13,176 nucleotides of DNA from Bdellovibrionales bacterium (lineage in GTDB: Bacteria; Bdellovibrionota; Bdellovibrionia; Bdellovibrionales; JAMPXM01). The notes below the pieces were generated by a model that was given only the letters and a program-made list of their open reading frames with translations, was not told the origin of the DNA and did not search any database. The position numbers and the translations under genes are program-made. Of the stretch, positions 1-13,176 are shown piece by piece (the stretch's first letter is position 1; the number at the start of each line of letters is the position of its first letter). The stretch lies in assembly GCA_043739185.1 (NCBI GenBank), contig JAYUEN010000310.1, positions 1-13,176 on the forward strand, written 5' to 3'.

Positions 1-30
1 CTAGCCCCTAGATCAAATTTGTGAAATCGT

Positions 31-1476
31 ATGGGGGTGATGAAATCTCGAAAATCCATCTATTTTATTTTAAATAGTAAAGCTTATGAGGTAACTGGAG
101 AGCAATGCTTTTTACCATTGGCTGATTTTCTTCGCTATGAAAGGTCCTTGACCGGAACCAAAATCGTTTGTGCGGAGGGAGACTGTGGGGCCTGCACCGT
201 GCTCTTGGCTTCTGTTCATGAACTTGACAAAGGATTACTTAAATTTAAGGCGGTCAATGCGTGTATCCTGCCTTTGTTTGCAATCGATGCATGTCAGATT
301 TTAAGTGTCGAGGCGCTCAAATATGAAAACAGTCTGCATCCGGTGCAAACTTCAATGCTCAATCAATTTGCCTCACAATGTGGATACTGTACGCCGGGAT
401 TTGTATGCGCTATGACTTCATTGCTTGAAGATTCAATTTTGAATAAAAAAACTATTACTGAAAAGCGGGCGAAAAACTATATGACCGGCAATTTGTGTCG
501 CTGCACCGGCTATGATCCGATCCTTAAAGCTGCGATGGCTCTTCCTCTTAATACTGAAAGTTTGCAAAAGCGATTTTCAAATGCAAAGCAGATTACTGAA
601 TTGAAAAAGCACGCCAAGATTCCTGTTGAAATGAAGGCTTTGGGTGTTTCTCTTTTTTTACCGACCAATCTCAAGCAGGCCATGAAAATAAAAATGAATG
701 AAAAGGCTGTGCAAATTGTAGCCGGCGCTACTGACATAGGAGTAGCCGTTAACAAGGGGCGAACTGAATATCGGAACGTCATGTCTCTTCAAAATATTTC
801 AGATCTTTGGGAAATTAAAAAAACCAATGATTATATCGAAATATCTGCCAGAGTTCCGCTTTCAGAAGTTCAAAAGTATTTTAAAAAAGTCTTTCCCGAA
901 ATGGACCAGATGCTCAATATTTTTGCCTCCCCGCAAATTAAAAATTCAGCTACTCTGGTTGGAAATGTCGTAAACGCCTCTCCGATTGCAGATAGTATTC
1001 CATTTTTGATGGCTCAAGATGCTCAGGTAAAAATTGAAAGTGCCAAAGGGACCAGGCTCGTTCCGATTGATAAGTTTTACCTTGGATATAAAAAGCTCAA
1101 TTTGAAATCTCATGAACTCGTGAGTGCCATTCGCATTCCGACGCCCTCAAAACATGATGTTTTGAAATTGATGAAGGTCTCGCTTCGCAAAGATCTCGAC
1201 ATTTCTGCGGTTACCTTGGCAATTCGAATTCGACAGGAAAAAAACGATATTAGTGAAGCCCGAATTGTTTTTGGAGGAGTGGGCCCAGTGGTTTTTCGTA
1301 TTCCGAAAATTGAAAAGCAGTGGCTAGGACAGAGGTTTAAAAAAGAACTCCTGCTCGATCTCTCACAAAATATTTCAAAATATGTTGCGCCCATTTCCGA
1401 TGTGAGGGGCTCAAAGGAATATCGCAATTTGTTGTGCTGCAATCTCTTGAAAAAAATGGCAGATGAAATGATATGA
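31..1476 (+). CDS. xdhA: Xanthine dehydrogenase small subunit (two [2Fe-2S] clusters + FAD)
   Basis: GTKIVCAEGDCGAC and VNAC (first Fe-S cluster), QCGYCTPGF and GNLCRCTGY (second Fe-S cluster), FAD motifs AGATD and FASPQIKNSATLVGNVVNASPIAD, C-terminal PISDVRGSKEYR. Overlaps the next gene by ATGA. The start could be the ATG at 40 instead of 31. Confidence 0.95.
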   Translation: MGVMKSRKSIYFILNSKAYEVTGEQCFLPLADFLRYERSLTGTKIVCAEGDCGACTVLLASVHELDKGLLKFKAVNACILPLFAIDACQILSVEALKYENSLHPVQTSMLNQFASQCGYCTPGFVCAMTSLLEDSILNKKTITEKRAKNYMTGNLCRCTGYDPILKAAMALPLNTESLQKRFSNAKQITELKKHAKIPVEMKALGVSLFLPTNLKQAMKIKMNEKAVQIVAGATDIGVAVNKGRTEYRNVMSLQNISDLWEIKKTNDYIEISARVPLSEVQKYFKKVFPEMDQMLNIFASPQIKNSATLVGNVVNASPIADSIPFLMAQDAQVKIESAKGTRLVPIDKFYLGYKKLNLKSHELVSAIRIPTPSKHDVLKLMKVSLRKDLDISAVTLAIRIRQEKNDISEARIVFGGVGPVVFRIPKIEKQWLGQRFKKELLLDLSQNISKYVAPISDVRGSKEYRNLLCCNLLKKMADEMI

Positions 1477-3860
1477 AGGATTTGGCAGAAGAGTCTAAAA
1501 TAGATCAATTGCGACTTTTGATGCCGCAAAATACTATTCACGAAGGGGCTTATTCTCATATAACCGGAGAAAGTCTGTTCGTAGACGATATTGCGCCACA
1601 GAAAGATGAATTGCAAATTGGGTATTTGGGTAGCCCGGTAGCCTGTGGAATCTTAAAAAATATTAATACTTCAAGTGCGCTAAAAATTTCGGGAGTTGTT
1701 GCCGTATTGACAGCAAAAGATATTAAAAACAATCTTTGGGGCACAATCAAGCAGGACCAACCCATACTTATAGATAAAGAAATCGGCTATCGAGATGAAC
1801 CAATTTGTATTATAGTGGCCGATAATAAAAAAGCCGTTGCACTCGCCAAAAAAGCTATCGAGCTTGAAATTGAAGAACATATTCCCGTTCTGTCTCTAGA
1901 TGAAGCTATAAAAAATAAAATGTTTTTGTACTCGCCACTTGCTTTTCAATGTGGGGATGTCGATCTGGCTATGAAAAATTCCCAACATAAATTATCTGGA
2001 AGTTTTGAGATCGGCGGTCAAGAACACTTTTACCTCGAGTCACAAGCAGCCTTAGTATATCCGATTGAAGGCAATCAAATTAAGGTGATTTCTTCAACTC
2101 AGCATCCCACCGAGACGCAACACTTAGTAGCAGAATCTCTGGGCCTTGATTATCATCAAGTGGTTTGTGAAGTTCGTCGCATGGGGGGTGCCTTTGGTGG
2201 AAAAGAGAGCCAAGCTGCGCCCTTTGCTGCAATGGCAGCCCTCGCAGCCTTTAAATTTAAAAGATCCGCTCGAATTGCGATTTCAAAAGACGAAGACATG
2301 AAGGTGACAGGCAAACGTCACCCTTTTAAACAATTTTACGAGGTTGGATTTGATCAGACTGGTATAATTTTAGGGCTCAAAGTGAAACTCTACGCCGATG
2401 CTGGCGCCTATACAGATCTCACACCATCCATTCTCGATCGAGCCATGTTTCATACCGATGGCTCCTATTATCTTGAAAATGCTCTCATTGAAGCTTGGGC
2501 GTGTAAGACCAATACTCATTCGAATACGGCGTTTAGAGGTTTTGGCGGCCCGCAAGGGAATCTATTAATCGAATATATTATTGAAGATATAGCGCAATAT
2601 TTAAATAAAGATGCAGCTCAAATACGCGAACTCAATCTTTATCAAAAAGAAACGCGCAACTATACTCCCTATGGACAATGTGTAGAAAACAATCTGTTGC
2701 CAGATCTTTTTTCAAAAATAATCGAAGATTCTAATTATTTGGTAAGAAGAAATGAGATCAAAGCCTTTAATGAAAGGGACAAGACTCATATAAAAGGACT
2801 TGCCTTAACAGCTTGTAAATTTGGAATTTCATTTACCGCCAAATTTCTCAATCAAGGGAATGCATTGGTTAATATTCACCGTGACGGCAGTATTCAGGTG
2901 TCAACAGGCGCAACTGAAATGGGTCAGGGAGTAAATACAAAGATTGCTCAAGTTGTAGCTCATGAATTTGGAATTTCTGTCAACAAAGTTCAAGTTCTGG
3001 TCACTTCGACAGAGAAGAATGCCAATACTTCACCTACCGCGGCTTCAAGTGGTTCCGATATTAATTGCTCGGCTGCTCTGCTTGCGTGTGAGAAGATAAA
3101 ATATCGTTTAGCGCAAATTGCAATTTCTTATTTGGTGACTCAGCCGCGACCTCCAATTGCGCCAAGCCTAAAAGAAATTGAAGTAACAGACACAAGTGAA
3201 CTTGCGAATGTCAGTATTCACGAGGTTGAATTTCGTGAAAATATGGTTTCATATAAAAACTCCAAAATGATGCTCATAGATCTTATTGAGCTTGCATATT
3301 TAAACAGAATTTCGATCAGTGATTACGCTCATTATAAAACCGAAGGACTTTCTTTTGATCGCTCCAAATCAAAAGGAAATGCGTTCAAATATTTCACTCC
3401 AGGAGTTGCCGTTTCAGAAGTCCTCATCGATCGCTATACTGGTGAAACCAAAATACTACGAGCGGATATCCTAATGGATCTCGGAAGACCCATGAATTTG
3501 GGAATTGATTTGGGCCAAGTGACGGGCGGATTCATTCAAGGGGCAGGCTGGATGACAACTGAAAAACTATATTACAGTCCGCAAGGCGCACTCCTTTCCT
3601 ATTCGCCAACGACTTATAAAATTCCAAATATTCAAGATACTCCACGTATTTTTAATGTAAAATTATTAGAAAATAACCTAAATGTGAAAAATGTCTCTCG
3701 ATCGAAAGCTGTGGGCGAGCCACCACTTTTATTAAGCGCCAGTGTTTTTATGGCAATTAAGAATGCGCTAAGTTACAAATCGAAGGGAAAACGCATTGAA
3801 CTCAAACTCCCGGCAACTCCAGAAGTTATTTTAACCGAACTTCATCGTCATGAACTTTGA
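1473..3860 (+). CDS. xdhB: Xanthine dehydrogenase molybdopterin-binding subunit
   Basis: GGQEHFYLE, SSTQHP, RRMGGAFGGKESQ (substrate Glu), DRAMFH (substrate Arg), TAFRGFGGPQG, TEMGQG, SPTAASSGSD and SKAVGEPP (catalytic Glu). Translationally coupled to xdhA through ATGA at 1473-1476. Confidence 0.96.
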   Translation: MKDLAEESKIDQLRLLMPQNTIHEGAYSHITGESLFVDDIAPQKDELQIGYLGSPVACGILKNINTSSALKISGVVAVLTAKDIKNNLWGTIKQDQPILIDKEIGYRDEPICIIVADNKKAVALAKKAIELEIEEHIPVLSLDEAIKNKMFLYSPLAFQCGDVDLAMKNSQHKLSGSFEIGGQEHFYLESQAALVYPIEGNQIKVISSTQHPTETQHLVAESLGLDYHQVVCEVRRMGGAFGGKESQAAPFAAMAALAAFKFKRSARIAISKDEDMKVTGKRHPFKQFYEVGFDQTGIILGLKVKLYADAGAYTDLTPSILDRAMFHTDGSYYLENALIEAWACKTNTHSNTAFRGFGGPQGNLLIEYIIEDIAQYLNKDAAQIRELNLYQKETRNYTPYGQCVENNLLPDLFSKIIEDSNYLVRRNEIKAFNERDKTHIKGLALTACKFGISFTAKFLNQGNALVNIHRDGSIQVSTGATEMGQGVNTKIAQVVAHEFGISVNKVQVLVTSTEKNANTSPTAASSGSDINCSAALLACEKIKYRLAQIAISYLVTQPRPPIAPSLKEIEVTDTSELANVSIHEVEFRENMVSYKNSKMMLIDLIELAYLNRISISDYAHYKTEGLSFDRSKSKGNAFKYFTPGVAVSEVLIDRYTGETKILRADILMDLGRPMNLGIDLGQVTGGFIQGAGWMTTEKLYYSPQGALLSYSPTTYKIPNIQDTPRIFNVKLLENNLNVKNVSRSKAVGEPPLLLSASVFMAIKNALSYKSKGKRIELKLPATPEVILTELHRHEL

Positions 3861-4641
3861 AGCTTTTTTGTCGGAATTTAAAGCAGCTCAAGGAAGTGGT
3901 CGCCCCTTTGTTGTCGTGACTTTAGTCGATTGCCAAGGCAGTGCTCCCCAAGAAGTTGGTGCCCGCATGATTGTCAATGATCTGGGTTATTTATCAGGAA
4001 CTGTGGGCGGCGGAAAATTAGAAAAGGCAAGTATTGAAAAAGCCCAACAGCTCTTAACTGATAAAGTAATGCAACCGCAATTTCAAAAATGGAATTTACA
4101 GAGCGATCTCAAAATGAGTTGTGGCGGAGTCGTGAGCTTATTTTTTGAAATGCATAATCCCTTGGGACTTTGGAAAGTGGTGATCTTTGGAGCCGGCCAT
4201 GTTTCACAAGAACTCATTCGGGTTTTACTTCGTCTAGAATGCCAAATTATTTGCATTGATCCTCGCCTTGAATGGCTTGCTAAATTGCCAAAGGATGCCA
4301 AGCTTCAAATTGAAAATTGTCAAGATATGCCCGAAAGAGCACGAAATATAGCCAAAGAATCCTTTGTTGTACTTGCTACGATGGGGCATTCAACTGACTT
4401 TCCTATCTTAAGAGAACTATTGCTGTCGCAATCCTATTCCTATATTGGAGTTTTAGGCAGCGATGTCAAAGCTCAGAAGATGCGGCAGGAGCTTAAGAAT
4501 GAATGCATTTCGGATCAAAAAATAAATTCATTTTTCTGTCCAATTGGTGAATTCATTGGGGACAATACGCCTGCTGAAATTGCCATTAGTATTTCTGCCC
4601 AATTGTTAAAAATTCGTGATCTCAAGAATTCAAGCCGCTAA
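3850..4641 (+). CDS. xdhC: Xanthine dehydrogenase accessory (Moco sulfuration/insertion) protein XdhC
   Basis: GSAPQEVGARM, GTVGGGKLE, CGGVV, Rossmann-like IFGAGHV, TMGHSTD, YIGVLGS, CPIG and PAEIAISI. Overlaps the xdhB end by 11 bp. Confidence 0.93.
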   Translation: MNFEAFLSEFKAAQGSGRPFVVVTLVDCQGSAPQEVGARMIVNDLGYLSGTVGGGKLEKASIEKAQQLLTDKVMQPQFQKWNLQSDLKMSCGGVVSLFFEMHNPLGLWKVVIFGAGHVSQELIRVLLRLECQIICIDPRLEWLAKLPKDAKLQIENCQDMPERARNIAKESFVVLATMGHSTDFPILRELLLSQSYSYIGVLGSDVKAQKMRQELKNECISDQKINSFFCPIGEFIGDNTPAEIAISISAQLLKIRDLKNSSR

Positions 4642-5650
4642 AACGTGAAAAAACGCGAATGCGATTGAAGCCGCCATCTGGGTATACCTTGATTTTTAAT
4701 TGTTGAACTTTATCGTTTAAACCAATTGGCATCGTAAATGTATTGCCAGCATAGGCTTTGACGTTGGTGCGAGAAATCAGATCCAACCATTGCTCTTTTA
4801 CAAAGGCTTGAATTTGCATTTTTAGGGGATTGTTATTTTTAAAGTATGTGAAATCAATTTCAATGTGATGAATTTTGCAGTCTTGCTTCAAACCAATGAC
4901 GATTTCTTCAAAGTGATTGGCGGTACGACTCCGTGCGGATTCAAAGCCATCAAACATATCGAGTGGCGTATAAGGAGATAAAATTTGAATTGCAGGGCCG
5001 TAGTGTTCATTTGAGGCAGAGATAATTTTAGCACCGTAAGCTAGGCTTGCGACATTAAATTCTTCGCCATTTTCTAGTCTTGCATAATTTGATTGAATTC
5101 GCTTTGAATCAATAAAGTATTTTGGGGCAAGTGGCTTTTTGGGCTGCGGAACGGCCTCATGAAAAGGATGGCTAATCGCTACTTGAGAGAATTTATTTAA
5201 TTCAGAATTTGGCAGAGTTTCAAAAATAGCAAAACGAGTGAGGCCTCCATCAGGCAATTGAGAAACTTTGAAAGTATTATATTTTTCAGTAGCCTTTTCG
5301 AGCGTGATATATTGAATGGCGTGGCCCTTAAGTTCAGTTCGATCGAGTAGGATTTTCCAATTCTGACTTTCTTCATCCCAAGCGGCGAACTGAATTGCAG
5401 GAGCTTGATTCCCCAAATGAAATTGAGTTGAGATCAAAAGATATCGAATGCAAGCAGGCTTTAATATTTTAAAAATTAAATCATCCGATGCTTTCGCATT
5501 ATGACGAACACTCTCCCAACTATCCATAATTTTACCCTGCATGCCGTAAAGTTCAGGATCGTATTCGGGAGGATGAGCTGAAAATAAATTCTCAGCGCGG
5601 GCAAACTTTTGATTGCTCACCTCTAAAATCTCTGAGCCTTTTGCAAGGCT
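4622..5650 (-). other. Domain (aa ~1231-1572): allantoicase, two tandem repeats
   Basis: Repeat 1: SNQKFARAENL...GKIMDSWESVRH...STQFHLGNQAP...PDGGLTRF. Repeat 2 from ~aa 1429: ASLAYGAKIISASNEHYG...DGFESARSR...IDFTYFKNNNP...YPDGGFNRIRVF. Confidence 0.85.
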
Positions 5651-8600
5651 TAAATTTAAGAGGGGGTCGACTAAAGAAGTTCGCACAATCTCTTCTGGCA
5701 GCGTGGGTCTAAAAGCGTCAAACAGCATTGTTTTGTAGGCCTGATTGACAATATTTTCAGGACTGACATTTTTTGTATTAAATTGTTTCGGAAAGGATGT
5801 TGTATCAACCCCCTCTAAGTTAAGTTCCCGACAAATCCTTTGCGCGGCCTCACAAATAAAGCTCACTCCATTGCTATCCGCATTGCATAATATAGTGAAA
5901 CCCTTGCCTAAATCTGGACCGGCAAAACAATATACAAAAATACAACGAAAGCCATCATTGGCTCCTTGATGAAGGGCAAAGCGATTCGGTCCTGCTTCAA
6001 TAGTAAAAATCCCAAGACCCATTCGCGCGCCCATAAATTCAATACTCGCTTTGTCTTGCCCAAATAACATTTGAACTGCGGTTGAATGAGAAATCGGGCC
6101 GGCTCCTTTGCAATCGTGAAATGCCTGCGCTAGTTTTTCTAAGAATTGAGTGACGGCTTCTGCCGTTCCCAGGGCTCCGGCCGCAAATGCCGGAAACATC
6201 TTTCTTGAGGTGGGAACTTCACTACCATCTGCTAAATATCCATTTGCACAAGCCTTCGCATTTGCTTTTTGGTCAAAAGTAATTTCGAGGTCGCCTAAAG
6301 AACTAAAAAATGACCTGGTCACATCTTTTATATTGTTATTTTCTAAGGCCTCAATGAGATGTTCAAGAACCAAAAATCCTCCGCCTGAATATTGAAATCT
6401 TTGTCCAGGAGGATTTAAAACACCCACTTTTGCATAAGAATACATTTCATTGCCATTTAGTAAGCTTGAAATCTTTGGCATTTCTTTATCATAGGGAATG
6501 CCATTTACGTAATGTAAATTAAGTGCTGTATGCTCCATCAAATGACAGATTGTTACTTCGTTGCTCCATTCGGGATGGGCAGGATTTAGTGAAACCAACC
6601 TAAACTGCGAAGTGGTTTTTTCAAAAAGACTATTCACACTCGTTTCGAGAGAGATTTGATGATTCTCAAAGTACTCAATCGCAAAACAGCTCGCAATAGA
6701 TTTACTTAAAGAGGCCAATTGAAAAAGGGTTTTTTTGGTGAGATCCTGAAGAGCCTTTTTTCCTTCTCCTAAAAGTAAAACTTCATTTTTATTAAACCCC
6801 GAGCTTATGCATATCTGGGCGCCGACTATATTATATTTTGTCAAAGAGGCTTCTAAAGCATCATGCAGAGAATGTTTTACAGACAATAATCTTTTGGCGC
6901 TAATTTCCCAAAGTGCCTGTTTTGCATTTATCAATTCTTTCTCAATTGAATTTTGTAAACGCAAATTCAATACTTGTAAAAGCTCTGAAGCGTTTCTTCC
7001 TTGAGCTGATATTAAAAACTTGATGCCAAATTTCTCAAGGTATTTAGCGCCAAGTATTCGCAATTGGCTTAGGCTATCTTTCTCACCTTGATGAACCATA
7101 GATTGCTCGTTTTGAGCCTTTTCATCGAGAGTTTTTTTGTCTTCTCCGATATCTCCGTGAAAGAAGGCAGCAGCGGTAATTTCGTTGACATTAAAATTCA
7201 ATATTATCTCTTGAGCACGCTTAAGGTCGAGATTTAATTGGGAAGCCATGGCTTGAGCGAACTCTTGATTCCCACAAATTGAAAAATAAAAATTAAATTT
7301 ATCAATATAAGTGGCCAATTTGTATTTTGAAGCATCAATTCTTAACATTTCGTCCCATGGCCTTTCGCTTTCTCGAATAGTGGGATTGCTAAATGGCAGC
7401 AAAAGTTCGGAAGCAAATTCAACGGGATTGGGATTCGTCATAAGTTGAATCATGATATTGAGCGCAACGGGATACCACTTTTCAGTTCGTCTGTCCCATT
7501 TGACCTGAACGATCTTCTGTTTATTTGAAAGATCCTTTCGAATAAAAACAAATTCTTCAGCCGCAATTCTTAAAAAGTCTTCAATTGAAAATCTTTGATG
7601 ATGGATTTCATGCCAAACTTCCCAGCGCGAACGTTCGGCAGTTGCTAAATCATCCATCACTCGAACGGGGACAGTTTCAATTTGAGCTGGCAGCGCAACA
7701 CAGCCATTGCCTGATAACCAATCGGTGAGATATTGCAGGGATTGAAAAATATTATAGCGTATTTCTTCTGGATGATCGTTGGCAATAAATTTAGACTCTT
7801 TTAAATCGGCAACTATGAGTGAACGAGCATACATTGGACTGTCTGGATCAAGACCTTCAAGATCAGGCCTTTCAATAAATTCAATTATCTCTTGGTGATA
7901 TTTTTTATCTAAGAGAGATTTAACCAATGTTGTAAGCGGAACAGAGTCTCCTTCCTTGCGGAGCTTCCAAGCTTCAACAAGGGCAATTCCGAGCCGAACA
8001 AAGTCGGGATGTGCTACCCAAAAACCAGACAATTCGCGTTTCATTTGGGTGATGACGTCTTTGATATAACCGCGAATGGTAAGTTGAAAAGATGCACCTT
8101 TGAGATCATTATCAACGGGCAAAACCCCATACATGCCACCAATTTTTACTCCGCCGCGTGCACCTACCACCTCGGCCAGTAATTGGTGTGAAGCTTTGAT
8201 ATAATTGATGACAATATTGGGATCTGCCTTTACCGGAATTCGATAATTCGCATCTTCCTTAAAAAGCCTAGCAGTAGAGGCCAAATAGTCATGCCAGCCA
8301 AGACTTGCCCCTGCAAAATAAGGAAAGAGCTCGTCCATCAGTTCGTGGACTCTAAATATCAAGCGAGGATTTTCTAAAACTACAAATAAACGAATTGTCC
8401 CTAGACGATACTCAGGATGCATCTGCTGAATTTTCAGTTCGGCACGCGCGACCATTGTTTTTATATATCGAGCCTCTTCAGTGGTTTCTAATTTGGGTAC
8501 ATAAAAAGCCAAAGCTTCTTGGTTGTGCCAATTGTGAAAAAGATGGAGACTAAAATCATAAAGGTGAAGTGGCAAAGGCTGATCTTTGTAAAGTAAAAAC

Positions 8601-9340
8601 GCGCAGGGAAGTGCAAGGCCAGGAAAGCGTTTAATAGGAAGGGATAGATTGTTTTTTTCAAGGCGATATTGTTTTTTCGTTTGTGGGTCTTGAAATGATA
8701 TTTGTCGACTGAAGCATTGAGTTAGATTTTCGCCAGCACTTATTAGGTCTTCACGTAAAGGCGTTTTTGAATCTTCATCGTCGGCACCCCATTTTGGAGA
8801 ACCCGAATAGTTCGCCAGCAATTCTTCAACGATCTTTGGCTCGCCTTTTATTTTGCGATGAAATGCATTCATAGCATTAATTGAAAGTTTCGGATCATCT
8901 GGAGGTCCGAATAAAGTGATATGATGACCTTTTAGGAAATCTGGCAAATTGGCAATAGGGGCAGCTTGGCCACGTTTGCAGTAATTATCATTAAGAGGAC
9001 CTACTACCAATCGCTCTCGTGAGTCCCTTTGGCCTATCACTGTTTCATAATTGGGATCTAAATAGTCGATCTTAAGATCTTGATTTAAATGATAGGCTAG
9101 TTTGGTTCTCGTATCTATAAAGTGTCTATCGATTTTTCTTTGTTTGAGTACCAAATTCAATTCACTCTGTAATTCCTCATAGAGCTCACAGAGAAATTTG
9201 AGCGCTTCCTTTGATTCAAGTCCGCCGCTCTTGCCAATTTCAGTAAGCTGCGGAACCTGGTTCACTGGTTGAGCCTGGCCTTTAAGATAGCTTAAAAACT
9301 CGTCTGAAATAAAATCTCGGTAATATTCAATATCTCGCAA
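4622..9340 (-). CDS. 1572-aa multidomain purine-catabolic fusion: malate synthase-like / OHCU decarboxylase / beta-lactamase-family serine hydrolase / allantoicase
   Basis: Uninterrupted ORF. TTG start 5 nt after the uraH stop, with an SD-like AGAGGA inside the last uraH codons. Four domain types are recognisable by motif (see the domain features). Confidence 0.88.
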   Translation of the reverse strand: MRDIEYYRDFISDEFLSYLKGQAQPVNQVPQLTEIGKSGGLESKEALKFLCELYEELQSELNLVLKQRKIDRHFIDTRTKLAYHLNQDLKIDYLDPNYETVIGQRDSRERLVVGPLNDNYCKRGQAAPIANLPDFLKGHHITLFGPPDDPKLSINAMNAFHRKIKGEPKIVEELLANYSGSPKWGADDEDSKTPLREDLISAGENLTQCFSRQISFQDPQTKKQYRLEKNNLSLPIKRFPGLALPCAFLLYKDQPLPLHLYDFSLHLFHNWHNQEALAFYVPKLETTEEARYIKTMVARAELKIQQMHPEYRLGTIRLFVVLENPRLIFRVHELMDELFPYFAGASLGWHDYLASTARLFKEDANYRIPVKADPNIVINYIKASHQLLAEVVGARGGVKIGGMYGVLPVDNDLKGASFQLTIRGYIKDVITQMKRELSGFWVAHPDFVRLGIALVEAWKLRKEGDSVPLTTLVKSLLDKKYHQEIIEFIERPDLEGLDPDSPMYARSLIVADLKESKFIANDHPEEIRYNIFQSLQYLTDWLSGNGCVALPAQIETVPVRVMDDLATAERSRWEVWHEIHHQRFSIEDFLRIAAEEFVFIRKDLSNKQKIVQVKWDRRTEKWYPVALNIMIQLMTNPNPVEFASELLLPFSNPTIRESERPWDEMLRIDASKYKLATYIDKFNFYFSICGNQEFAQAMASQLNLDLKRAQEIILNFNVNEITAAAFFHGDIGEDKKTLDEKAQNEQSMVHQGEKDSLSQLRILGAKYLEKFGIKFLISAQGRNASELLQVLNLRLQNSIEKELINAKQALWEISAKRLLSVKHSLHDALEASLTKYNIVGAQICISSGFNKNEVLLLGEGKKALQDLTKKTLFQLASLSKSIASCFAIEYFENHQISLETSVNSLFEKTTSQFRLVSLNPAHPEWSNEVTICHLMEHTALNLHYVNGIPYDKEMPKISSLLNGNEMYSYAKVGVLNPPGQRFQYSGGGFLVLEHLIEALENNNIKDVTRSFFSSLGDLEITFDQKANAKACANGYLADGSEVPTSRKMFPAFAAGALGTAEAVTQFLEKLAQAFHDCKGAGPISHSTAVQMLFGQDKASIEFMGARMGLGIFTIEAGPNRFALHQGANDGFRCIFVYCFAGPDLGKGFTILCNADSNGVSFICEAAQRICRELNLEGVDTTSFPKQFNTKNVSPENIVNQAYKTMLFDAFRPTLPEEIVRTSLVDPLLNLSLAKGSEILEVSNQKFARAENLFSAHPPEYDPELYGMQGKIMDSWESVRHNAKASDDLIFKILKPACIRYLLISTQFHLGNQAPAIQFAAWDEESQNWKILLDRTELKGHAIQYITLEKATEKYNTFKVSQLPDGGLTRFAIFETLPNSELNKFSQVAISHPFHEAVPQPKKPLAPKYFIDSKRIQSNYARLENGEEFNVASLAYGAKIISASNEHYGPAIQILSPYTPLDMFDGFESARSRTANHFEEIVIGLKQDCKIHHIEIDFTYFKNNNPLKMQIQAFVKEQWLDLISRTNVKAYAGNTFTMPIGLNDKVQQLKIKVYPDGGFNRIRVFSRFSGLNS
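5800..6880 (-). other. Domain (aa ~821-1180): beta-lactamase/AmpC-like serine hydrolase
   Basis: TLFQLAS877LSK880 (SxxK), VTICHLMEHTA (cf. ITIxxLLxHTSG), PGQRFQY984SGGG (Yxx motif), MGLG and H1124QGANDGF (HxG motif). Confidence 0.88.
6887..7310 (-). other. Domain (aa ~678-818): OHCU decarboxylase (UraD/PucL-N-like)
   Basis: H728GDIG (cf. HPxIG), NE745QS, YLEKFGIKFLISAQG (cf. YxxKFGFxFII), RLQN and a terminal ISAKRL. Confidence 0.85.
7391..9340 (-). other. Domain (aa ~1-650): divergent malate synthase A-like TIM barrel
   Basis: ADDEDSKTP (cf. ADFEDS), R238 in PIKRFPG, FYVPKLE..EA, GTIRLFVVLE323, GWHD351Y (E-to-D spacing of 28, as in AceB E250/D278), GGM, WVAHP, WLSGNGCV and MDD564LATAERSR (cf. 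MEDAATAEISR). Confidence 0.85.
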
Positions 9341-9345
9341 GGGGT

Positions 9346-9669
9346 TTAACTTCCTCTGTATGTAGAAAAGCCGAAGGGACTTAAAAGCAATGGAACATGA
9401 TACTTTCGTGCAATATCTTCAACTTTAAATACCACCGAATTATTCATAAAGAAAAAAGCGCGCTTTTCTTTTTCAAAATATTTCTCAATTTCAAAGCTAA
9501 TCTGATAGGTCGCCGGAGTTAGCTCGCAATCAAAAGCAAAGCGACCATCTGAATTGGTAAGCCCGGCTTTGACTTCGATCCACTTTGTGCCTTCTCTCTT
9601 TTCAAGTCTCACTTTTACATCTGTTGCTGGAAGGCCACGACTCGTATCTAAAATATGGGTGCTAATCAT
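9346..9669 (-). CDS. uraH: 5-hydroxyisourate hydrolase (transthyretin-like, cytoplasmic)
   Basis: ISTHILDTSRGLPA, TNSDGR, YHVPLLLSPFGFST and the diagnostic C-terminal YRGS. No signal peptide. AAGG RBS upstream. Confidence 0.97.
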   Translation of the reverse strand: MISTHILDTSRGLPATDVKVRLEKREGTKWIEVKAGLTNSDGRFAFDCELTPATYQISFEIEKYFEKEKRAFFFMNNSVVFKVEDIARKYHVPLLLSPFGFSTYRGS

Positions 9670-9678
9670 TTTAACCTT

Positions 9679-11277
9679 CTATTTCTGGTAAATAAATTCA
9701 ACCGATAATACTTCATTTTCTCGAACTTCAATTTCTCTTGTCAGAGTGCCAAAAACCTCATGCCAAGCCTCAAGAGTATAGTGGCCAGGTGAGAGTCCTG
9801 GTATTTCATACTCGCCCTGCGAATTTGAAACGCTGAAAAAAGGATGCTCGACGACCGCAATCCATGCACTCATCCAAGGATGAACACTGCATTTTGTTTG
9901 CAGCAAGATTTCAGGTTTATCAAAAACCTGAGCAATACGATCATTTTGATTTGGCATCGCCACATTGAATTCGGCATTATTTTTAGATAATGATTTCACA
10001 TTATGAAAAACTGGATCGCTATTGATGAATTCAATTCTTTGACCAACGCGAACCCCTATGATTCGCGGCTCATATTGGCAATATCTTTGATCCAATTGCA
10101 CTGGCTTTTCGGGTATTTGATCAAAAGTTTTTCCCTCTAATCCCTTGGTAATTCGGAGCAGTACATTTTTAATTTTGTTATCGTTAATTAAAATATCATT
10201 GGCATAAACTTCAGTCTGAGCATTTTGAGCACAGGCCAATGGCAACATCAGCTTTTCACGCTTAGGAAGAATTCCTTGAAATTGAACCACTCCCTTTACT
10301 CCTGATTTTATCAACGGGCCTTCAATCGCAGAGCTTTTTTTAACTGGATTCGGGTCACTGATTGATTTTATATTTTCTTTTGAAAAGAGCATGACCCCTA
10401 AAATCAGTGTAATCCCAACTGCCAAAAAGCTCTTTGAACGCAAAGGATTCTTAAGTCTTACGACAAAAAATTCGCGAATACAGGCGCCGGCAGCACTTAT
10501 TAAGAGTAAAATGAGCCAATTTAATTTATGACCATAGGTATTGGGAAAATGATTGCTAATCATGATGAAGATTACGGGCAGAGTTAAATATGTATTATGG
10601 GTTGAGCGATTTTTTGCATTGATAGCCCATTCTTGATTGACCGGCTCGCCGCGTTTTGCGGCCGCCACTCCTTTTACCAAGCGGGGAATGATCCGCAAAA
10701 AAACATTTGCGGTCATCCAGGTTCCCAACATGCTACCCATATGCATATAGGCAGCGCGGCCACTCAGGAGATGACACAGAAAATAGGACATTCCAGAAAG
10801 CCACAATAAAGTCAGAATATGACCAAGATAGGCTTTGCTTTTTACAAAATTCTGCTCCCACAAGATATCATAAAAAAACCAAGATCCCGCAATTGAAAAA
10901 ACACTTAAGCCGATGGCCTGCCAGTAGCCAATATTTGAAATCGATGAATCGAGTAAAAAGCTGCCATTTCCCGTATAAAAAATCATGACGATTAAAAATA
11001 CGCCACTCATCCAGGTCCAATAGGATTCCCATTTAAACCAGTGAAGATGTTCAGGTACTTTCGTAGGGCCAATTAAGAGTTTTTCAACATGATAAAAGCC
11101 GCCGCCATGAACCATCCATAGATCCCCAATATGGCCCGGACTCTTAGAATTTTCATTGAATTCGAAACTTCGATCGAGCCACATAAAAAAAATAGATGTC
11201 CCAATCCAAGTAATGCCAACTGTAATATGCAGCCAACGACCTAATAATAATAACCAATCAAAAATTTCTTGATTCAA
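9679..11277 (-). CDS. puuD: PuuD-type integral-membrane urate oxidase/hydroxylase domain fused to a cupredoxin-like + carboxypeptidase-regulatory-like C-terminal region
   Basis: The N-terminal ~300 aa is multi-TM with RWLH..GITWIGTSIFF, LWMVHGGGFY, LHWFKWESYWTWMSG, SGRAAYMH.G, MTANVF..IIP, RSTHNTYLTLPVIFIMISNHFP and IREFF. The C-terminal region has DQRYCQYEP, NSDPVFHNV, KCSVHPWM and PGHYTLEAWHE. TTG start with a GAGG RBS. Confidence 0.85.
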   Translation of the reverse strand: MNQEIFDWLLLLGRWLHITVGITWIGTSIFFMWLDRSFEFNENSKSPGHIGDLWMVHGGGFYHVEKLLIGPTKVPEHLHWFKWESYWTWMSGVFLIVMIFYTGNGSFLLDSSISNIGYWQAIGLSVFSIAGSWFFYDILWEQNFVKSKAYLGHILTLLWLSGMSYFLCHLLSGRAAYMHMGSMLGTWMTANVFLRIIPRLVKGVAAAKRGEPVNQEWAINAKNRSTHNTYLTLPVIFIMISNHFPNTYGHKLNWLILLLISAAGACIREFFVVRLKNPLRSKSFLAVGITLILGVMLFSKENIKSISDPNPVKKSSAIEGPLIKSGVKGVVQFQGILPKREKLMLPLACAQNAQTEVYANDILINDNKIKNVLLRITKGLEGKTFDQIPEKPVQLDQRYCQYEPRIIGVRVGQRIEFINSDPVFHNVKSLSKNNAEFNVAMPNQNDRIAQVFDKPEILLQTKCSVHPWMSAWIAVVEHPFFSVSNSQGEYEIPGLSPGHYTLEAWHEVFGTLTREIEVRENEVLSVEFIYQK

Positions 11278-11293
11278 GTTTTAACCTCAAATT

Positions 11294-11776
11294 TTAATAC
11301 CGAACTTTATCGATTTTATGATTCCAAATATCAAAAACTTTTAATGCTTCATCTCTGCAAACTTGTTGCATACTAATTTTACGTGATTTTAAATCCTTGG
11401 GTATTTCTTGATAAAGAAATTCGTCGTCAAATTGAATCGCGGCCGCATCCGCCCGAGTGTTGGCGTAATAAATTTTTGACAATCGCGCCCAATAAATAGC
11501 AGACAAACACATCGGGCAGGGTTCACAACTTGTATAAATTTCGGCACCAGCTAATTCAAAATTATTCAGGTTTTTGCAGGCCTCGCGAATGGCTTCAACT
11601 TCTGCATGGGCGGTGGGATCATTGGTAAGCGTAACTTTGTTCCAGCCCTCACCAATAATTTTCTGATCTAAAACGACCACTGCTCCAAATGGACCGCCGC
11701 CTCTGGTTTCAACATTGAGCTTCGAAAGTTCGATCGCCCTTTTCATAAATTTCTGATGATTTGCATTTGAGTTCAT
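11294..11776 (-). CDS. guaD: Guanine deaminase, cytidine-deaminase-fold (Bacillus GuaD type)
   Basis: GGPFGAVVV, NDPTAHAEV, YTSCEPCPMCLSAIYWA (Zn motifs), FDDEFLY and a C-terminal Tyr typical of GuaD. Purine-catabolic context. GAGGG RBS. Confidence 0.88.
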   Translation of the reverse strand: MNSNANHQKFMKRAIELSKLNVETRGGGPFGAVVVLDQKIIGEGWNKVTLTNDPTAHAEVEAIREACKNLNNFELAGAEIYTSCEPCPMCLSAIYWARLSKIYYANTRADAAAIQFDDEFLYQEIPKDLKSRKISMQQVCRDEALKVFDIWNHKIDKVRY

Positions 11777-11797
11777 TGGTCCCTCTCTGGACCAACA

Positions 11798-11827
11798 ACT
11801 CTAGCGGGGCTTTTTAATACAGTCCAA
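11798..11827 (-). promoter_or_regulatory. Possible sigma70-type promoter for the guaD-puuD-uraH-fusion operon
   Basis: On the minus strand, TTGGAC-18 nt-TAGAGT ends 21 nt upstream of the guaD ATG. The match to consensus is imperfect. Confidence 0.3.
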
Positions 11828-11869
11828 TCCTAGACTCCTACTTTGACAAGCTGCAGGGTATTTGAGACT

Positions 11870-12400
11870 TTAAATTCCCACTGAACAATCAAATTTACCA
11901 CTCGAAGTGGGGGCTCCGGTTTTAGAAAAGCCTTTGAAAGACCCAATATAGTGCCGTTCGGTGTCAGTAGAGCCTTCAAAATCTGGCTCGGTGTTCTCAG
12001 TGATATCGATTTTATAAACCGAATTAGAAGACTTAATTTCTGCAGAAACTGGCAATACCATAGTCTCATCACCATCTCGATCGTCCATATGAGTTCTTTT
12101 GCTCGAATATTGTACACTCGTCTGCCATCCAGCTGAATCATCATTTGGCTCTGATAAAACAATTCCAAAATTACTCTTATCTAATTTTGAAATTTTGCCG
12201 TCTTTGCACTCCTGAAACTCGCTGACGCTCAATCTGATATCCGTTCCACTGTCAGGATTAATACAATTTAAAGTGACCATTCGATAGTTAAAGGAACATT
12301 CATGTCCAGGCTGAGCAACTGACTGCGCAAATAACTGTGGTGTTGCTGTTAAAAGCAAACCGAATGTCATCGAGATAATAGATTGCATGTGAATACCCAT
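11870..12400 (-). CDS. Hypothetical secreted protein
   Basis: Hydrophobic N-terminus (MQSIISMTFGLLLTATPQLFA|QS) resembling a Sec signal peptide, four Cys in the mature part, AGGGG RBS upstream. No family recognised. Confidence 0.7.
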   Translation of the reverse strand: MGIHMQSIISMTFGLLLTATPQLFAQSVAQPGHECSFNYRMVTLNCINPDSGTDIRLSVSEFQECKDGKISKLDKSNFGIVLSEPNDDSAGWQTSVQYSSKRTHMDDRDGDETMVLPVSAEIKSSNSVYKIDITENTEPDFEGSTDTERHYIGSFKGFSKTGAPTSSGKFDCSVGI

Positions 12401-12524
12401 AACTAGACCCCTATCTTAAAGTTTGAAATACCTAGGTGGAGGCTAAGATACTTGATAGTTGCACCCATTTGAATTTTATTGTGGCTCGCGCTAGTTTTTA
12501 CAAAAGTGATAACAAAAAACGTCC

Positions 12525-12585
12525 TTATTACCAGGAGCATGACATAGTTCGCTTTTTGCGAGCTATGTCATGCTCCTGGTAATAA
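12525..12585. repeat. 28-bp inverted repeat with a 5-nt T loop
   Basis: TTATTACCAGGAGCATGACATAGTTCGC-TTTTT-GCGAGCTATGTCATGCTCCTGGTAATAA. 27 of 28 positions pair by Watson-Crick rules, and the remaining one is a T.G wobble on the + strand. Confidence 0.95.
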
Positions 12586-12687
12586 ATGCTCAATTGAAAA
12601 TTGTTTAAACTAGCCTCGATTATATTCATTATAAATTGAAACAAGACTAGGATTTGAAGAATTCAACCCTATAATTAATTCTAAGAG

Positions 12688-13176
12688 ATGAGAAAGAGTC
12701 AAAGTTCTTCCTTAAAACTAAAAGGCCACGAAAGTGAAGTTGTAGAGCTCGATGACTTTTCTTTTGAGGGAAACTATTCCTCCCACGGAATTGGTGTTGG
12801 GAATAAAATTTCTCCGGAGCGCTTGCTCAATTTAGCTGTCGATCACAAATTTAAACATGTGGTTCAAAGCTCGACTGAAGATCATCAGCGGCAGATTTTG
12901 AGCTCGCAAATAATGTTAGAAAAGCCCAAAATATTTTTTAAGTATCCGCTGAGCACTATTGTTAAGCCAGACTCTACCAATAGTAGTACTGAAAAAGCTC
13001 TTACCAAAATTCAAATTAAATTCAAAAATTTTGAGCAAAAATCTGCTGCTCTTGAAAAATTAGTAGTCGCACTTTCTGAATCAAGTAAAGATCAATCTTT
13101 AATTTTAGATGTTAAATTAGTGGCAGATGAATTGATGTGCAATGCGCTTTACAACGCTCCTTCGCCTGAAGCTAAA
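12688..13176 (+). CDS. Partial ORF (runs off the window): putative GHKL/HATPase_c-like (anti-sigma-factor-like) protein
   Basis: Not in the ORF track. By my translation it is open for 163 codons from ATG 12688 (MRKSQSSSLKLKG...) and ends ...LDVKLVADELMCNALYNAPSPEAK, which resembles the N-box (ELxxNA) of RsbW/SpoIIAB-like ATPases. TATAAT lies at 12670-12675. Confidence 0.55.
   Translation, partial: MRKSQSSSLKLKGHESEVVELDDFSFEGNYSSHGIGVGNKISPERLLNLAVDHKFKHVVQSSTEDHQRQILSSQIMLEKPKIFFKYPLSTIVKPDSTNSSTEKALTKIQIKFKNFEQKSAALEKLVVALSESSKDQSLILDVKLVADELMCNALYNAPSPEAK

Follow-up and report, generated by a model that had tools for sequence, protein, structure and literature searches.

A fused open reading frame at a purine-catabolic locus

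We analyzed a 13,176-nt contig of a Bdellovibrionales bacterium (assembly GCA_043739185.1, contig JAYUEN010000310.1, positions 1 to 13,176; here, the window), in which one long open reading frame (ORF) lies among genes of urate breakdown. The encoded chain joins a malate-synthase-like (MSL) module, a 2-oxo-4-hydroxy-4-carboxy-5-ureidoimidazoline (OHCU) decarboxylase (UraD), a β-lactamase-fold serine hydrolase (SH), and an allantoicase. Within this fusion of a known pathway, SH is probably a new enzyme class. The fusion and its modules are arranged as follows.

4622..9340, minus strand: four-module purine-catabolic fusion ORF, 1,572 amino acids (aa) (ORF scan, Pfam, homologues)
7331..9340, minus strand: MSL module, aa 1 to ~670 (Pfam, alignment, predicted structure)
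6881..7318, minus strand: UraD (OHCU decarboxylase) module, aa ~675 to 820 (Pfam, conserved residues)
5705..6874, minus strand: SH module, aa 823 to 1212, candidate allantoinase with a β-lactamase/penicillin-binding protein (PBP) fold (Pfam, motifs, predicted structure)
5207..5650, minus strand: allantoicase repeat 1, aa 1231 to 1378 (Pfam, kept motifs)
4640..5080, minus strand: allantoicase repeat 2, aa ~1421 to 1567 (NCBIfam match below cut-off, kept motifs)

The ORF opens with a TTG start codon, has the motif AGAGGA 11 nt 5′ of it, and contains zero internal stops. Five Pfam families matched above their cut-offs: MS_TIM-barrel (aa 239 to 451), MS_C (525 to 642), OHCU_decarbox (707 to 818), Beta-lactamase (830 to 1157), and Allantoicase, the last as two repeats from aa 1235 on (best match, 1235 to 1373). 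The NCBIfam equivalog scores all fell below their cut-offs (malate synthase A, TIGR01344, 141 versus 594.5 bits; UraD, TIGR03180, 67 versus 139.4; allantoicase, TIGR02961, 166 versus 277.9), indicating that every module is divergent. Nevertheless, the UraD module scored 62.5 bits against PF09349 (cut-off, 24), and its H728 and E745, which are invariant in 121/121 fusions, align with the His and Glu that act in catalysis in the Klebsiella enzyme. The allantoicase module consists of two PF03561 repeats, which carry the motifs D-G/S-W/F-E-x-x-R and PDGG; repeat 1 keeps D1273, W1275, E1276, R1279, and PDGG, and repeat 2 keeps E1467, R1470, and R1472. Between 11 canonical and 11 fused allantoicases, 33 positions are invariant in both. 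The fused sequences form their own clade, and no allantoicase other than the fused copy was found in the fusion genomes.

In a protein search, 8,000 candidates were scored, giving 634 matches at an E value of ≤1e-10. All of the best 120 of these 634 matches carried the five Pfam families together, with 95 to 100% length coverage and 53 to 64% identity. We also compared the best 80 of 153 stretches with a fusion relative from species-representative genomes (by title chiefly Bdellovibrionales, Bacteriovoracaceae, and Oligoflexia, plus some Planctomycetota; two closed chromosomes included). Of these loci, 58 held a complete single fusion ORF, 15 were cut by a contig end, 5 were broken in two, and 2 were stand-alone MSL genes. 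In the window, positions 4000 to 10000 were covered, with zero gaps or joints, by contigs (not raw reads) from four runs of one study; contig X1 spanned the region in one piece with 0 differences, although X1 and X2 are possibly the source themselves, and contigs X3 and X4 bridged the three module junctions in pieces between them. We therefore rejected mis-assembly and chance read-through as explanations of the long ORF: the 5 broken loci are what could be said for an artifact, but the 120 full-length homologues, some on closed chromosomes, and the gap-free contigs leave that virtually no chance. We conclude that the fusion is genuine and widely conserved. The sequence-only reading had claimed four enzymes in one ORF, with junctions near 7350, 6880, and 5700, and these claims hold up: the positions fit the module borders, and the domain-architecture comparison and the contig check both agree. 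It had also not recognized the architecture as described, and our literature searches, which left most subscription journals outside their reach, likewise found no description of this architecture or of a β-lactamase-fold allantoinase. The four-module fusion is thus apparently uncharacterized, while the pathway itself is known. Automatic annotations list the domains of the fusion, and many bacterial and protist genomes carry the SH module under names such as "serine hydrolase" and "beta-lactamase class C family."

The serine hydrolase module as a candidate allantoinase

The SH module is a β-lactamase-fold serine hydrolase, matching PF00144 above the cut-off and carrying the expected motifs. 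Its predicted structure (predicted local distance difference test [pLDDT] score of 94.5) matched esterases, amidases, and peptidases of the PBP/β-lactamase type, with identities not exceeding 20%. In fold (Z up to 34; root mean square deviation of ~3 Å) and catalytic motifs it resembles class C β-lactamases, R61 DD-peptidase, the family VIII esterases IS11/EstB, D-amino-acid amidase, and LACTB. However, it differs from these enzymes in sequence, in its position as an internal module of a long enzyme, and in motifs of its own, and a role in resistance is unsupported; against the class C β-lactamase model NF033085 it scored 20.4 bits (cut-off, 415) and is not a member. A search of the ESM Atlas returned only generic β-lactamase and malate synthase clusters. 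The roles of the SxxK, Tyr, and H/K-x-G motifs in serine hydrolases are well established, and the corresponding residues of SH, S877-x-x-K880, Y984, and H1124-Q-G, are invariant in 121/121 fusions. They are also retained across the wider SH family (Ser, 141/142; Lys, 141/142; Tyr, 181/183; His, 172/173 of the rows covering each position), which in addition has the motifs H943-Y-V-N-G (HYVNG) and HQ[GA]ANDGF and a C-terminal extension. The fold by itself gives no substrate.

Two known allantoinases carry out the reaction proposed here for SH: AllB/DAL1, a metal amidohydrolase (TIGR03178), and PuuE/HpxB, which has a polysaccharide-deacetylase fold (TIGR03212). SH resembles them in its operon place, between OHCU decarboxylase and allantoicase, and in a complementary distribution, but is set apart by its serine β-lactamase/PBP-like fold with SxxK, Tyr, and HxG motifs. 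It matched neither model, and the folds are unrelated; this lowers the likelihood of membership in those families but not that of an equivalent function.

The distribution of these genes was assessed in 151 genomes of the phylum, which are related, so that counts are not independent, and are mostly incomplete assemblies. Nineteen of them carried the fusion and 17 others carried AllB above its cut-off, with an overlap of 0; both types occurred within families f13 and f15. PuuE was found in 0/151, while allantoicase was present in all 36 genomes of the fusion and AllB sets. Strong SH-profile matches, sought in 80 genomes, were confined to 20 fusion genomes, with two weak matches in G358. The closed fusion genomes G153 and G154 contained no AllB above the cut-off, no PuuE, and no AllA, and G154 had no AllB-like match even at 1e-40. 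Likewise, no PuuE, AllA, or isocitrate lyase was found in the genome of the window itself (G000; 97.65% complete). Two AllB-like candidates were rejected: the best match in G000, its only AllB-like gene, is a dihydroorotase above its own cut-off, and the L001 gene, which lies in a pyrimidine cluster, is a dihydropyrimidinase.

Gene order points the same way as presence and absence. At AllB loci of the same phylum, allB-alc-uraD were adjacent in 15/15 fetched, with puuD directly upstream in 12; these loci have the same parts list with AllB replacing SH, suggesting that SH fills the AllB slot. Stand-alone MSL clusters use AllB (L109, L120, L122, and L125) or PuuE (L124 and L014), and none of 80 metagenome SH loci had a match to AllB, PuuE, AllA, or DUF6986. 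A further constraint comes from the protein P0375, which joins SH to a canonical AllA and an allantoicase above the family cut-off and ends in SKL. Its allantoicase shares 35.5% identity with a canonical enzyme and 25% with the fused type, and clusters with the canonical sequences (100/100). Because P0375 already holds AllA and allantoicase, its SH step should be neither of these reactions, which leaves the upstream step.

SH homologues also occur as stand-alone proteins of 400 to 450 aa, with the source labels Prymnesium parvum, Symbiodinium pilosum, MMETSP, and EukProt; a eukaryotic origin for most of them rests on these labels and on neighboring genes. We selected 58 stand-alone proteins from 103 matches by alignment end, identity of <44%, and a complete C terminus. 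A strict peroxisomal targeting signal type 1 (PTS1) closed 15 of the 58 (11/29 clusters at 70% identity), compared to 58/23,543 internal tripeptides (0.25%), 2/121 fusions, and 5/120 MSL-search matches. The purine-degrading enzymes of a cryptophyte carry PTS1, according to a published study (PMC9244630). Among 150 family representatives compared by BLAST with pathway references, the fusion partners of SH were MSL, UraD, allantoicase, and AllA, and four-module forms with a PTS1 end were present (P0355 and P0403). A metagenome scan with P0198 returned zero relatives.

Other arrangements of the modules were also observed. A 1,940-aa five-module form (L220:156-5978, plus strand) reads uricase (above the cut-off)-MSL-UraD-SH-allantoicase, with a close relative in three pieces in L224. 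In L230 and L231 the form is split into an MSL ending in AKL and a separate UraD-SH-allantoicase ORF. At L199 (582-9148) the fusion stands with a tandem cytidine deaminase (CDA)-type deaminase, a TauD-family dioxygenase, uraH, and a flavin adenine dinucleotide (FAD) monooxygenase. The dioxygenase is possibly a xanthine dioxygenase and the monooxygenase possibly an HpxO-type urate hydroxylase, which would replace Xdh and PuuD there.

Taken together, the gene distribution indicates that SH is quite probably an allantoinase, which would make it a third, nonhomologous type. The sequence-only reading had guessed at this activity, and mutual exclusion with AllB, replacement in the operon slot, and the P0375 fusion all back the guess. 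Several points weigh against this assignment and the pathway built on it. A serine acyl-enzyme on allantoin is without a precedent that we found, the nearest folds (identity, ≤20%) being those of esterases, D-amino-acid amidases, and peptidases; the counts come from related genomes and mostly incomplete assemblies; and P0375 is one sequence, with its allantoicase on a long branch. In addition, the fused allantoicase differs from the canonical enzyme at 11 otherwise invariant positions, and all fused allantoicases, the present one included, score below the TIGR02961 cut-off. Finally, genes of the dihydroorotase/hydantoinase type, which are possible moonlighters, were present in G000 and in 4/5 other fusion genomes. 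If one of these, or an unrecognized gene, opened allantoin, then SH would act elsewhere, for example, as a ureidoglycolate or urea amidohydrolase or in side-product repair. The failure to find urease or urea carboxylase in the five fusion genomes checked would suit such a role, as would a fold that does not specify the substrate. However, the clean exclusion of AllB, which extends in G154 to AllB-like matches at 1e-40, and the presence of both AllA and allantoicase in P0375 make it distinctly unlikely.

The malate-synthase-like module and the ureidoglycolate step

The predicted structure of the MSL module (pLDDT of 94.8) had E. coli malate synthase A (3cv2) as its best fold match, at 22% identity; a stand-alone relative scored 155 bits against TIGR01344, likewise below the cut-off. 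In an alignment of 27 MSL rows with 13 rows of malate synthase A, the catalytic residues were numbered 166, 250, 278, and 447 as in E. coli AceB and checked on the AceB sequence. The catalytic and Mg-binding residues R238, E323, D351, and D564 and the Trp gate W441 were kept in 27/27 MSL rows, and the catalytic set was kept in 121/121 fusions. The acetyl-coenzyme A (CoA) site of malate synthase, given in PMC3112382 as I94, T95, G96, M102, M330, P369, and C438, corresponds in MSL to L143, F144, G145, L152, M403, P445, and C547 (6/7 identical or conservative, with Thr95 replaced by Phe). One motif has changed: MSL has G-W-H-D in place of the G-R-W-D of malate synthase A, so that Arg276-Trp277 becomes Trp-His, with Trp349 at the Arg276 position in 27/27 rows. 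These two positions also vary among true malate synthase isoforms (hvMSH, E190/V191; ecMSG, L454), as that study reports (PMC3112382).

MSL can thus be likened to two different enzymes. It shares with malate synthase A (E. coli AceB, 3cuz/3cv2; yeast DAL7 in the DAL cluster) the fold, the catalytic Arg/Glu/Asp/Asp, the Trp gate, the CoA site, and the link to purine clusters, but it is 24% identical in sequence, has ~680 aa with insertions and the altered motif, and follows allantoicase rather than isocitrate lyase. The second enzyme is the zebrafish (Danio rerio) MSL (DrMSL), described in PMC10120013 as a ureidoglycolate lyase (UGL) in which Arg276 is Ile, Trp365 is Met, and the acetyl-CoA site is not conserved; the UGL clade of that paper is eukaryote only. 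By this published description, through which alone DrMSL was compared, both are malate synthase folds tied to allantoicase, with Arg276 replaced and with PTS1 on some members (PMC10120013). Unlike DrMSL, however, MSL keeps the CoA site and the Trp365 equivalent. These retained residues, together with the catalytic set and the Trp gate, favor a working synthase and misfit a lyase of the zebrafish type, which counts against the lyase activity considered below.

The genomic distribution of MSL was examined in a second phylum (that of G156), where 22 of 201 genomes had a stand-alone MSL; the first 20 listed of the 178 MSL-free genomes served as the comparison. Allantoicase was present in 20/22 MSL genomes versus 2/20 MSL-free genomes, and isocitrate lyase was present in 15/22 versus 8/20. 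Isocitrate lyase was always accompanied by its own malate synthase A-type gene (35/35), and this canonical pair was kept in 14/22 MSL genomes and 5/19 fusion genomes. Among the 20 stand-alone MSL loci fetched (of 22), 5 lay in full purine clusters and none lay beside aceA. A role of MSL as the glyoxylate-shunt synthase was accordingly rejected. In the phylum of G151, stand-alone MSL was found in G151 alone (1/201). Strong AllA matches were limited to three genomes with allantoicase but no MSL (G037, G358, and G366), and none was found in fusion genomes. Since MSL follows allantoicase and is nearly exclusive with AllA, it may occupy the ureidoglycolate step, as a lyase besides or instead of a synthase.

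DUF6986 (PF22484; e.g., L143:9761-11116, plus strand, among L143 to L156) closes allB-alc-uraD(-uraH) operons in 14/15 fetched AllB loci and has weak malate-synthase/HpcH matches. It was found in 16/17 AllB genomes, 0/19 fusion genomes, and 1/23 MSL genomes of the second phylum, making it another candidate, judged by occurrence, for the ureidoglycolate/glyoxylate step, nearly exclusive with MSL. At L014 (3532-14163; record titled Desulfobulbaceae), puuE, an ABC transporter, a stand-alone MSL, ureidoglycine aminohydrolase, and allantoate amidohydrolase occur together with no allA. A gene there without an NCBIfam match is presumably an allantoin racemase. At this locus, MSL would also serve the AllC/AllE route. 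Apart from the fusion copies, neither malate synthase A nor malate synthase G was found in G000, and Gcl was not found there either. An AllD route in that genome was rejected, its AllD-like gene scoring below all cut-offs and having no purine neighbors.

From these residues and this distribution, it is likely that MSL condenses glyoxylate with acetyl-CoA to malate, and we lean toward a second activity, the splitting of ureidoglycolate to glyoxylate and urea; a function other than these two is very improbable. Points against the lyase role, besides the residues, are that 15 of the 20 fetched stand-alone loci lack an adjacent allantoinase-allantoicase cluster, that the MSL genome G528 has a weak AllA-like match (43 bits), and that AllA and DUF6986 occur together in G358 and G366, as MSL and DUF6986 do in G453. 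The slot after allantoicase is thus not strictly exclusive. That both activities reside in one site is a tentative proposal, to which we give less than an even chance. A slightly less favored alternative, a plausible minority view, is that MSL is an ordinary malate synthase dedicated to purines, as yeast DAL7 is, with ureidoglycolate decaying spontaneously or through the allantoicase module. The retained catalytic, Mg, Trp-gate, and CoA-site residues and the lack of any other glyoxylate sink found in G000 argue for it; so do the variability of positions 276/277 (PMC3112382) and the spontaneous hydrolysis of ureidoglycolate (PMC10120013). On the other hand, MSL is kept beside canonical aceBA in 14/22 and 5/19 genomes and is nearly exclusive with AllA and DUF6986, and in P0375 the comparable place is taken by AllA. 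The converse, that MSL is a lyase only and a bacterial parallel of DrMSL, would end the protein's work at glyoxylate and urea rather than malate. MSL follows allantoicase and not isocitrate lyase, avoids AllA, stands at L014 among puuE, allE, and allC, and has lost Arg276, as DrMSL has (PMC10120013, by the same description). However, the CoA site and Trp365 equivalent that DrMSL lost are invariant in MSL, and a further malate synthase A is lacking from 14/19 fusion genomes, so that we consider a pure lyase unlikely.

Proposed pathway and genomic context

We propose, with a probability of roughly 0.7, that the lower urate pathway is borne by a single cytoplasmic polypeptide, with activities assigned by homology and context. 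The guanine deaminase, XdhABC, PuuD, and UraH of the neighboring genes would supply OHCU, which the UraD module, by family membership, would decarboxylate to (S)-allantoin. SH would then open the hydantoin ring to give allantoate: by its fold, Ser877, activated by Lys880/Tyr984, could attack the C4 carbonyl of the ring to give an acyl-enzyme, which would then be hydrolyzed, in analogy to β-lactam opening. The allantoicase module, again by family, would release urea and ureidoglycolate, and the N-terminal MSL would dispose of ureidoglycolate/glyoxylate, ending as malate. Since no urease or urea carboxylase was found in the five fusion genomes checked, the cell would gain carbon (as malate), reducing power, and a way to dispose of purines rather than nitrogen, suggesting that fusion bacteria exploit purines as a carbon source.

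The sequence-only reading had placed the last three modules in reaction order if the hydrolase is an allantoinase, which agrees with the pathway proposed here; MSL stands outside that order. Its malate synthase assignment fits the active-site residues but left the step from ureidoglycolate to glyoxylate without an enzyme, and MSL may serve there too or instead. Its suggestion that intermediates are channeled fares less well. The order UraD-SH-allantoicase, which is the reaction order, was kept in every examined fused form with those three modules, and the linkers are short, as a substrate-channeling line with connected active sites would have. Nevertheless, OHCU is made by a separate UraH protein, the modules (MSL and SH among them) also stand alone or are split differently, and, according to a review, natural UraH-UraD fusions show co-localization, not direct channeling (PMC13751858). 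We therefore regard true channeling as quite improbable; the fusion would provide co-expression and proximity. Known natural fusions of consecutive urate enzymes are comparable, such as the UraH-UraD allantoin synthase described there (PMC13751858) and the allantoicase-UraD of L120, L122, L124, L161, and L162, but the present one has four modules (five with uricase in L220).

A bolder joint reading is that SH founds a serine-nucleophile allantoinase class in predatory bacteria and many protist peroxisomes, and that MSL is a bifunctional lyase/synthase like the ancestor proposed in PMC10120013, giving a chain from OHCU to malate and two ureas. In the five-module form, such a chain would run from urate oxidation onward, hydroxyisourate hydrolysis excepted. 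In full, this reading is speculative and rather unlikely. If true, it would provide a new fold for the allantoinase step and fill a hole in the pathway of many bacteria and protists whose genomes carry the module. Early eukaryotes have been proposed to possess a bifunctional ureidoglycolate lyase/malate synthase, and MSL would then be a living candidate for such an enzyme that can be put to the test. A natural urate-degrading chain of four to five enzymes would also be of interest for multienzyme uricolytic design.

The remaining genes of the window are as follows.

31..1476, plus strand: xdhA, xanthine dehydrogenase FeS/FAD subunit (TIGR02963, 436 bits, just below the cut-off of 467)
1473..3860, plus strand: xdhB, xanthine dehydrogenase molybdopterin subunit (TIGR02965 above cut-off)
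3850..4641, plus strand: xdhC accessory protein (TIGR02964 above cut-off)
9346..9669, minus strand: uraH, hydroxyisourate hydrolase (OHCU source), 5 nt 5′ of the fusion (TIGR02962 above cut-off)
9679..11277, minus strand: PuuD-type membrane urate oxidase, Urate_ox_N (Pfam)
11294..11776, minus strand: CDA-fold deaminase, probable guanine deaminase (name from fold and context)
11870-12400, minus strand: 176-aa ORF with a signal-peptide-like start (no Pfam/NCBIfam match)

The purine-catabolic role claimed in the sequence-only reading is borne out by the neighbors in 81 loci (the 80 genome loci and the window): uraH was beside the fusion in 70, a PuuD-type gene in 59, xdhA and xdhB in 26 each, xdhC in 25, and uricase in 8. 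The check for PuuE at the 80 loci covered recurrent neighbors only. In the window, xdhC and the fusion are convergent, and their 3′ ends overlap by 20 nt (4622 to 4641); no terminator-like site was found in this overlap, and the promoter and terminator scan was at chance level (19 versus 19.2 and 4 versus 6.8).

The PuuD-type urate oxidase of the window lacks a CxxCH cytochrome c motif; its C-terminal domain instead contains H-N-V and C-x-x-H-P-W-M. Among the 59 PuuD genes at fusion loci, 51 carried C-x-x-H-P-W-M and 6 carried CxxCH. We take H-N-V plus C-x-x-H-P-W-M to be a type 1 copper (cupredoxin) signature. In the PuuD paper, cytochrome c is described as invariant (PMC4562309). The window gene is possibly a copper-type urate oxidase variant, as judged from these motifs.

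The same assembly contains a second copy of the cluster, L104 (G000:C299:1-4464), with a hypothetical gene, deaminase, puuD, uraH, and a fusion cut at the contig end; the 176-aa ORF also occurs upstream in this copy. L104 is ~71% identical to the window in DNA sequence and 74% identical in the fusion start, and is possibly a paralogue or a contaminating relative.

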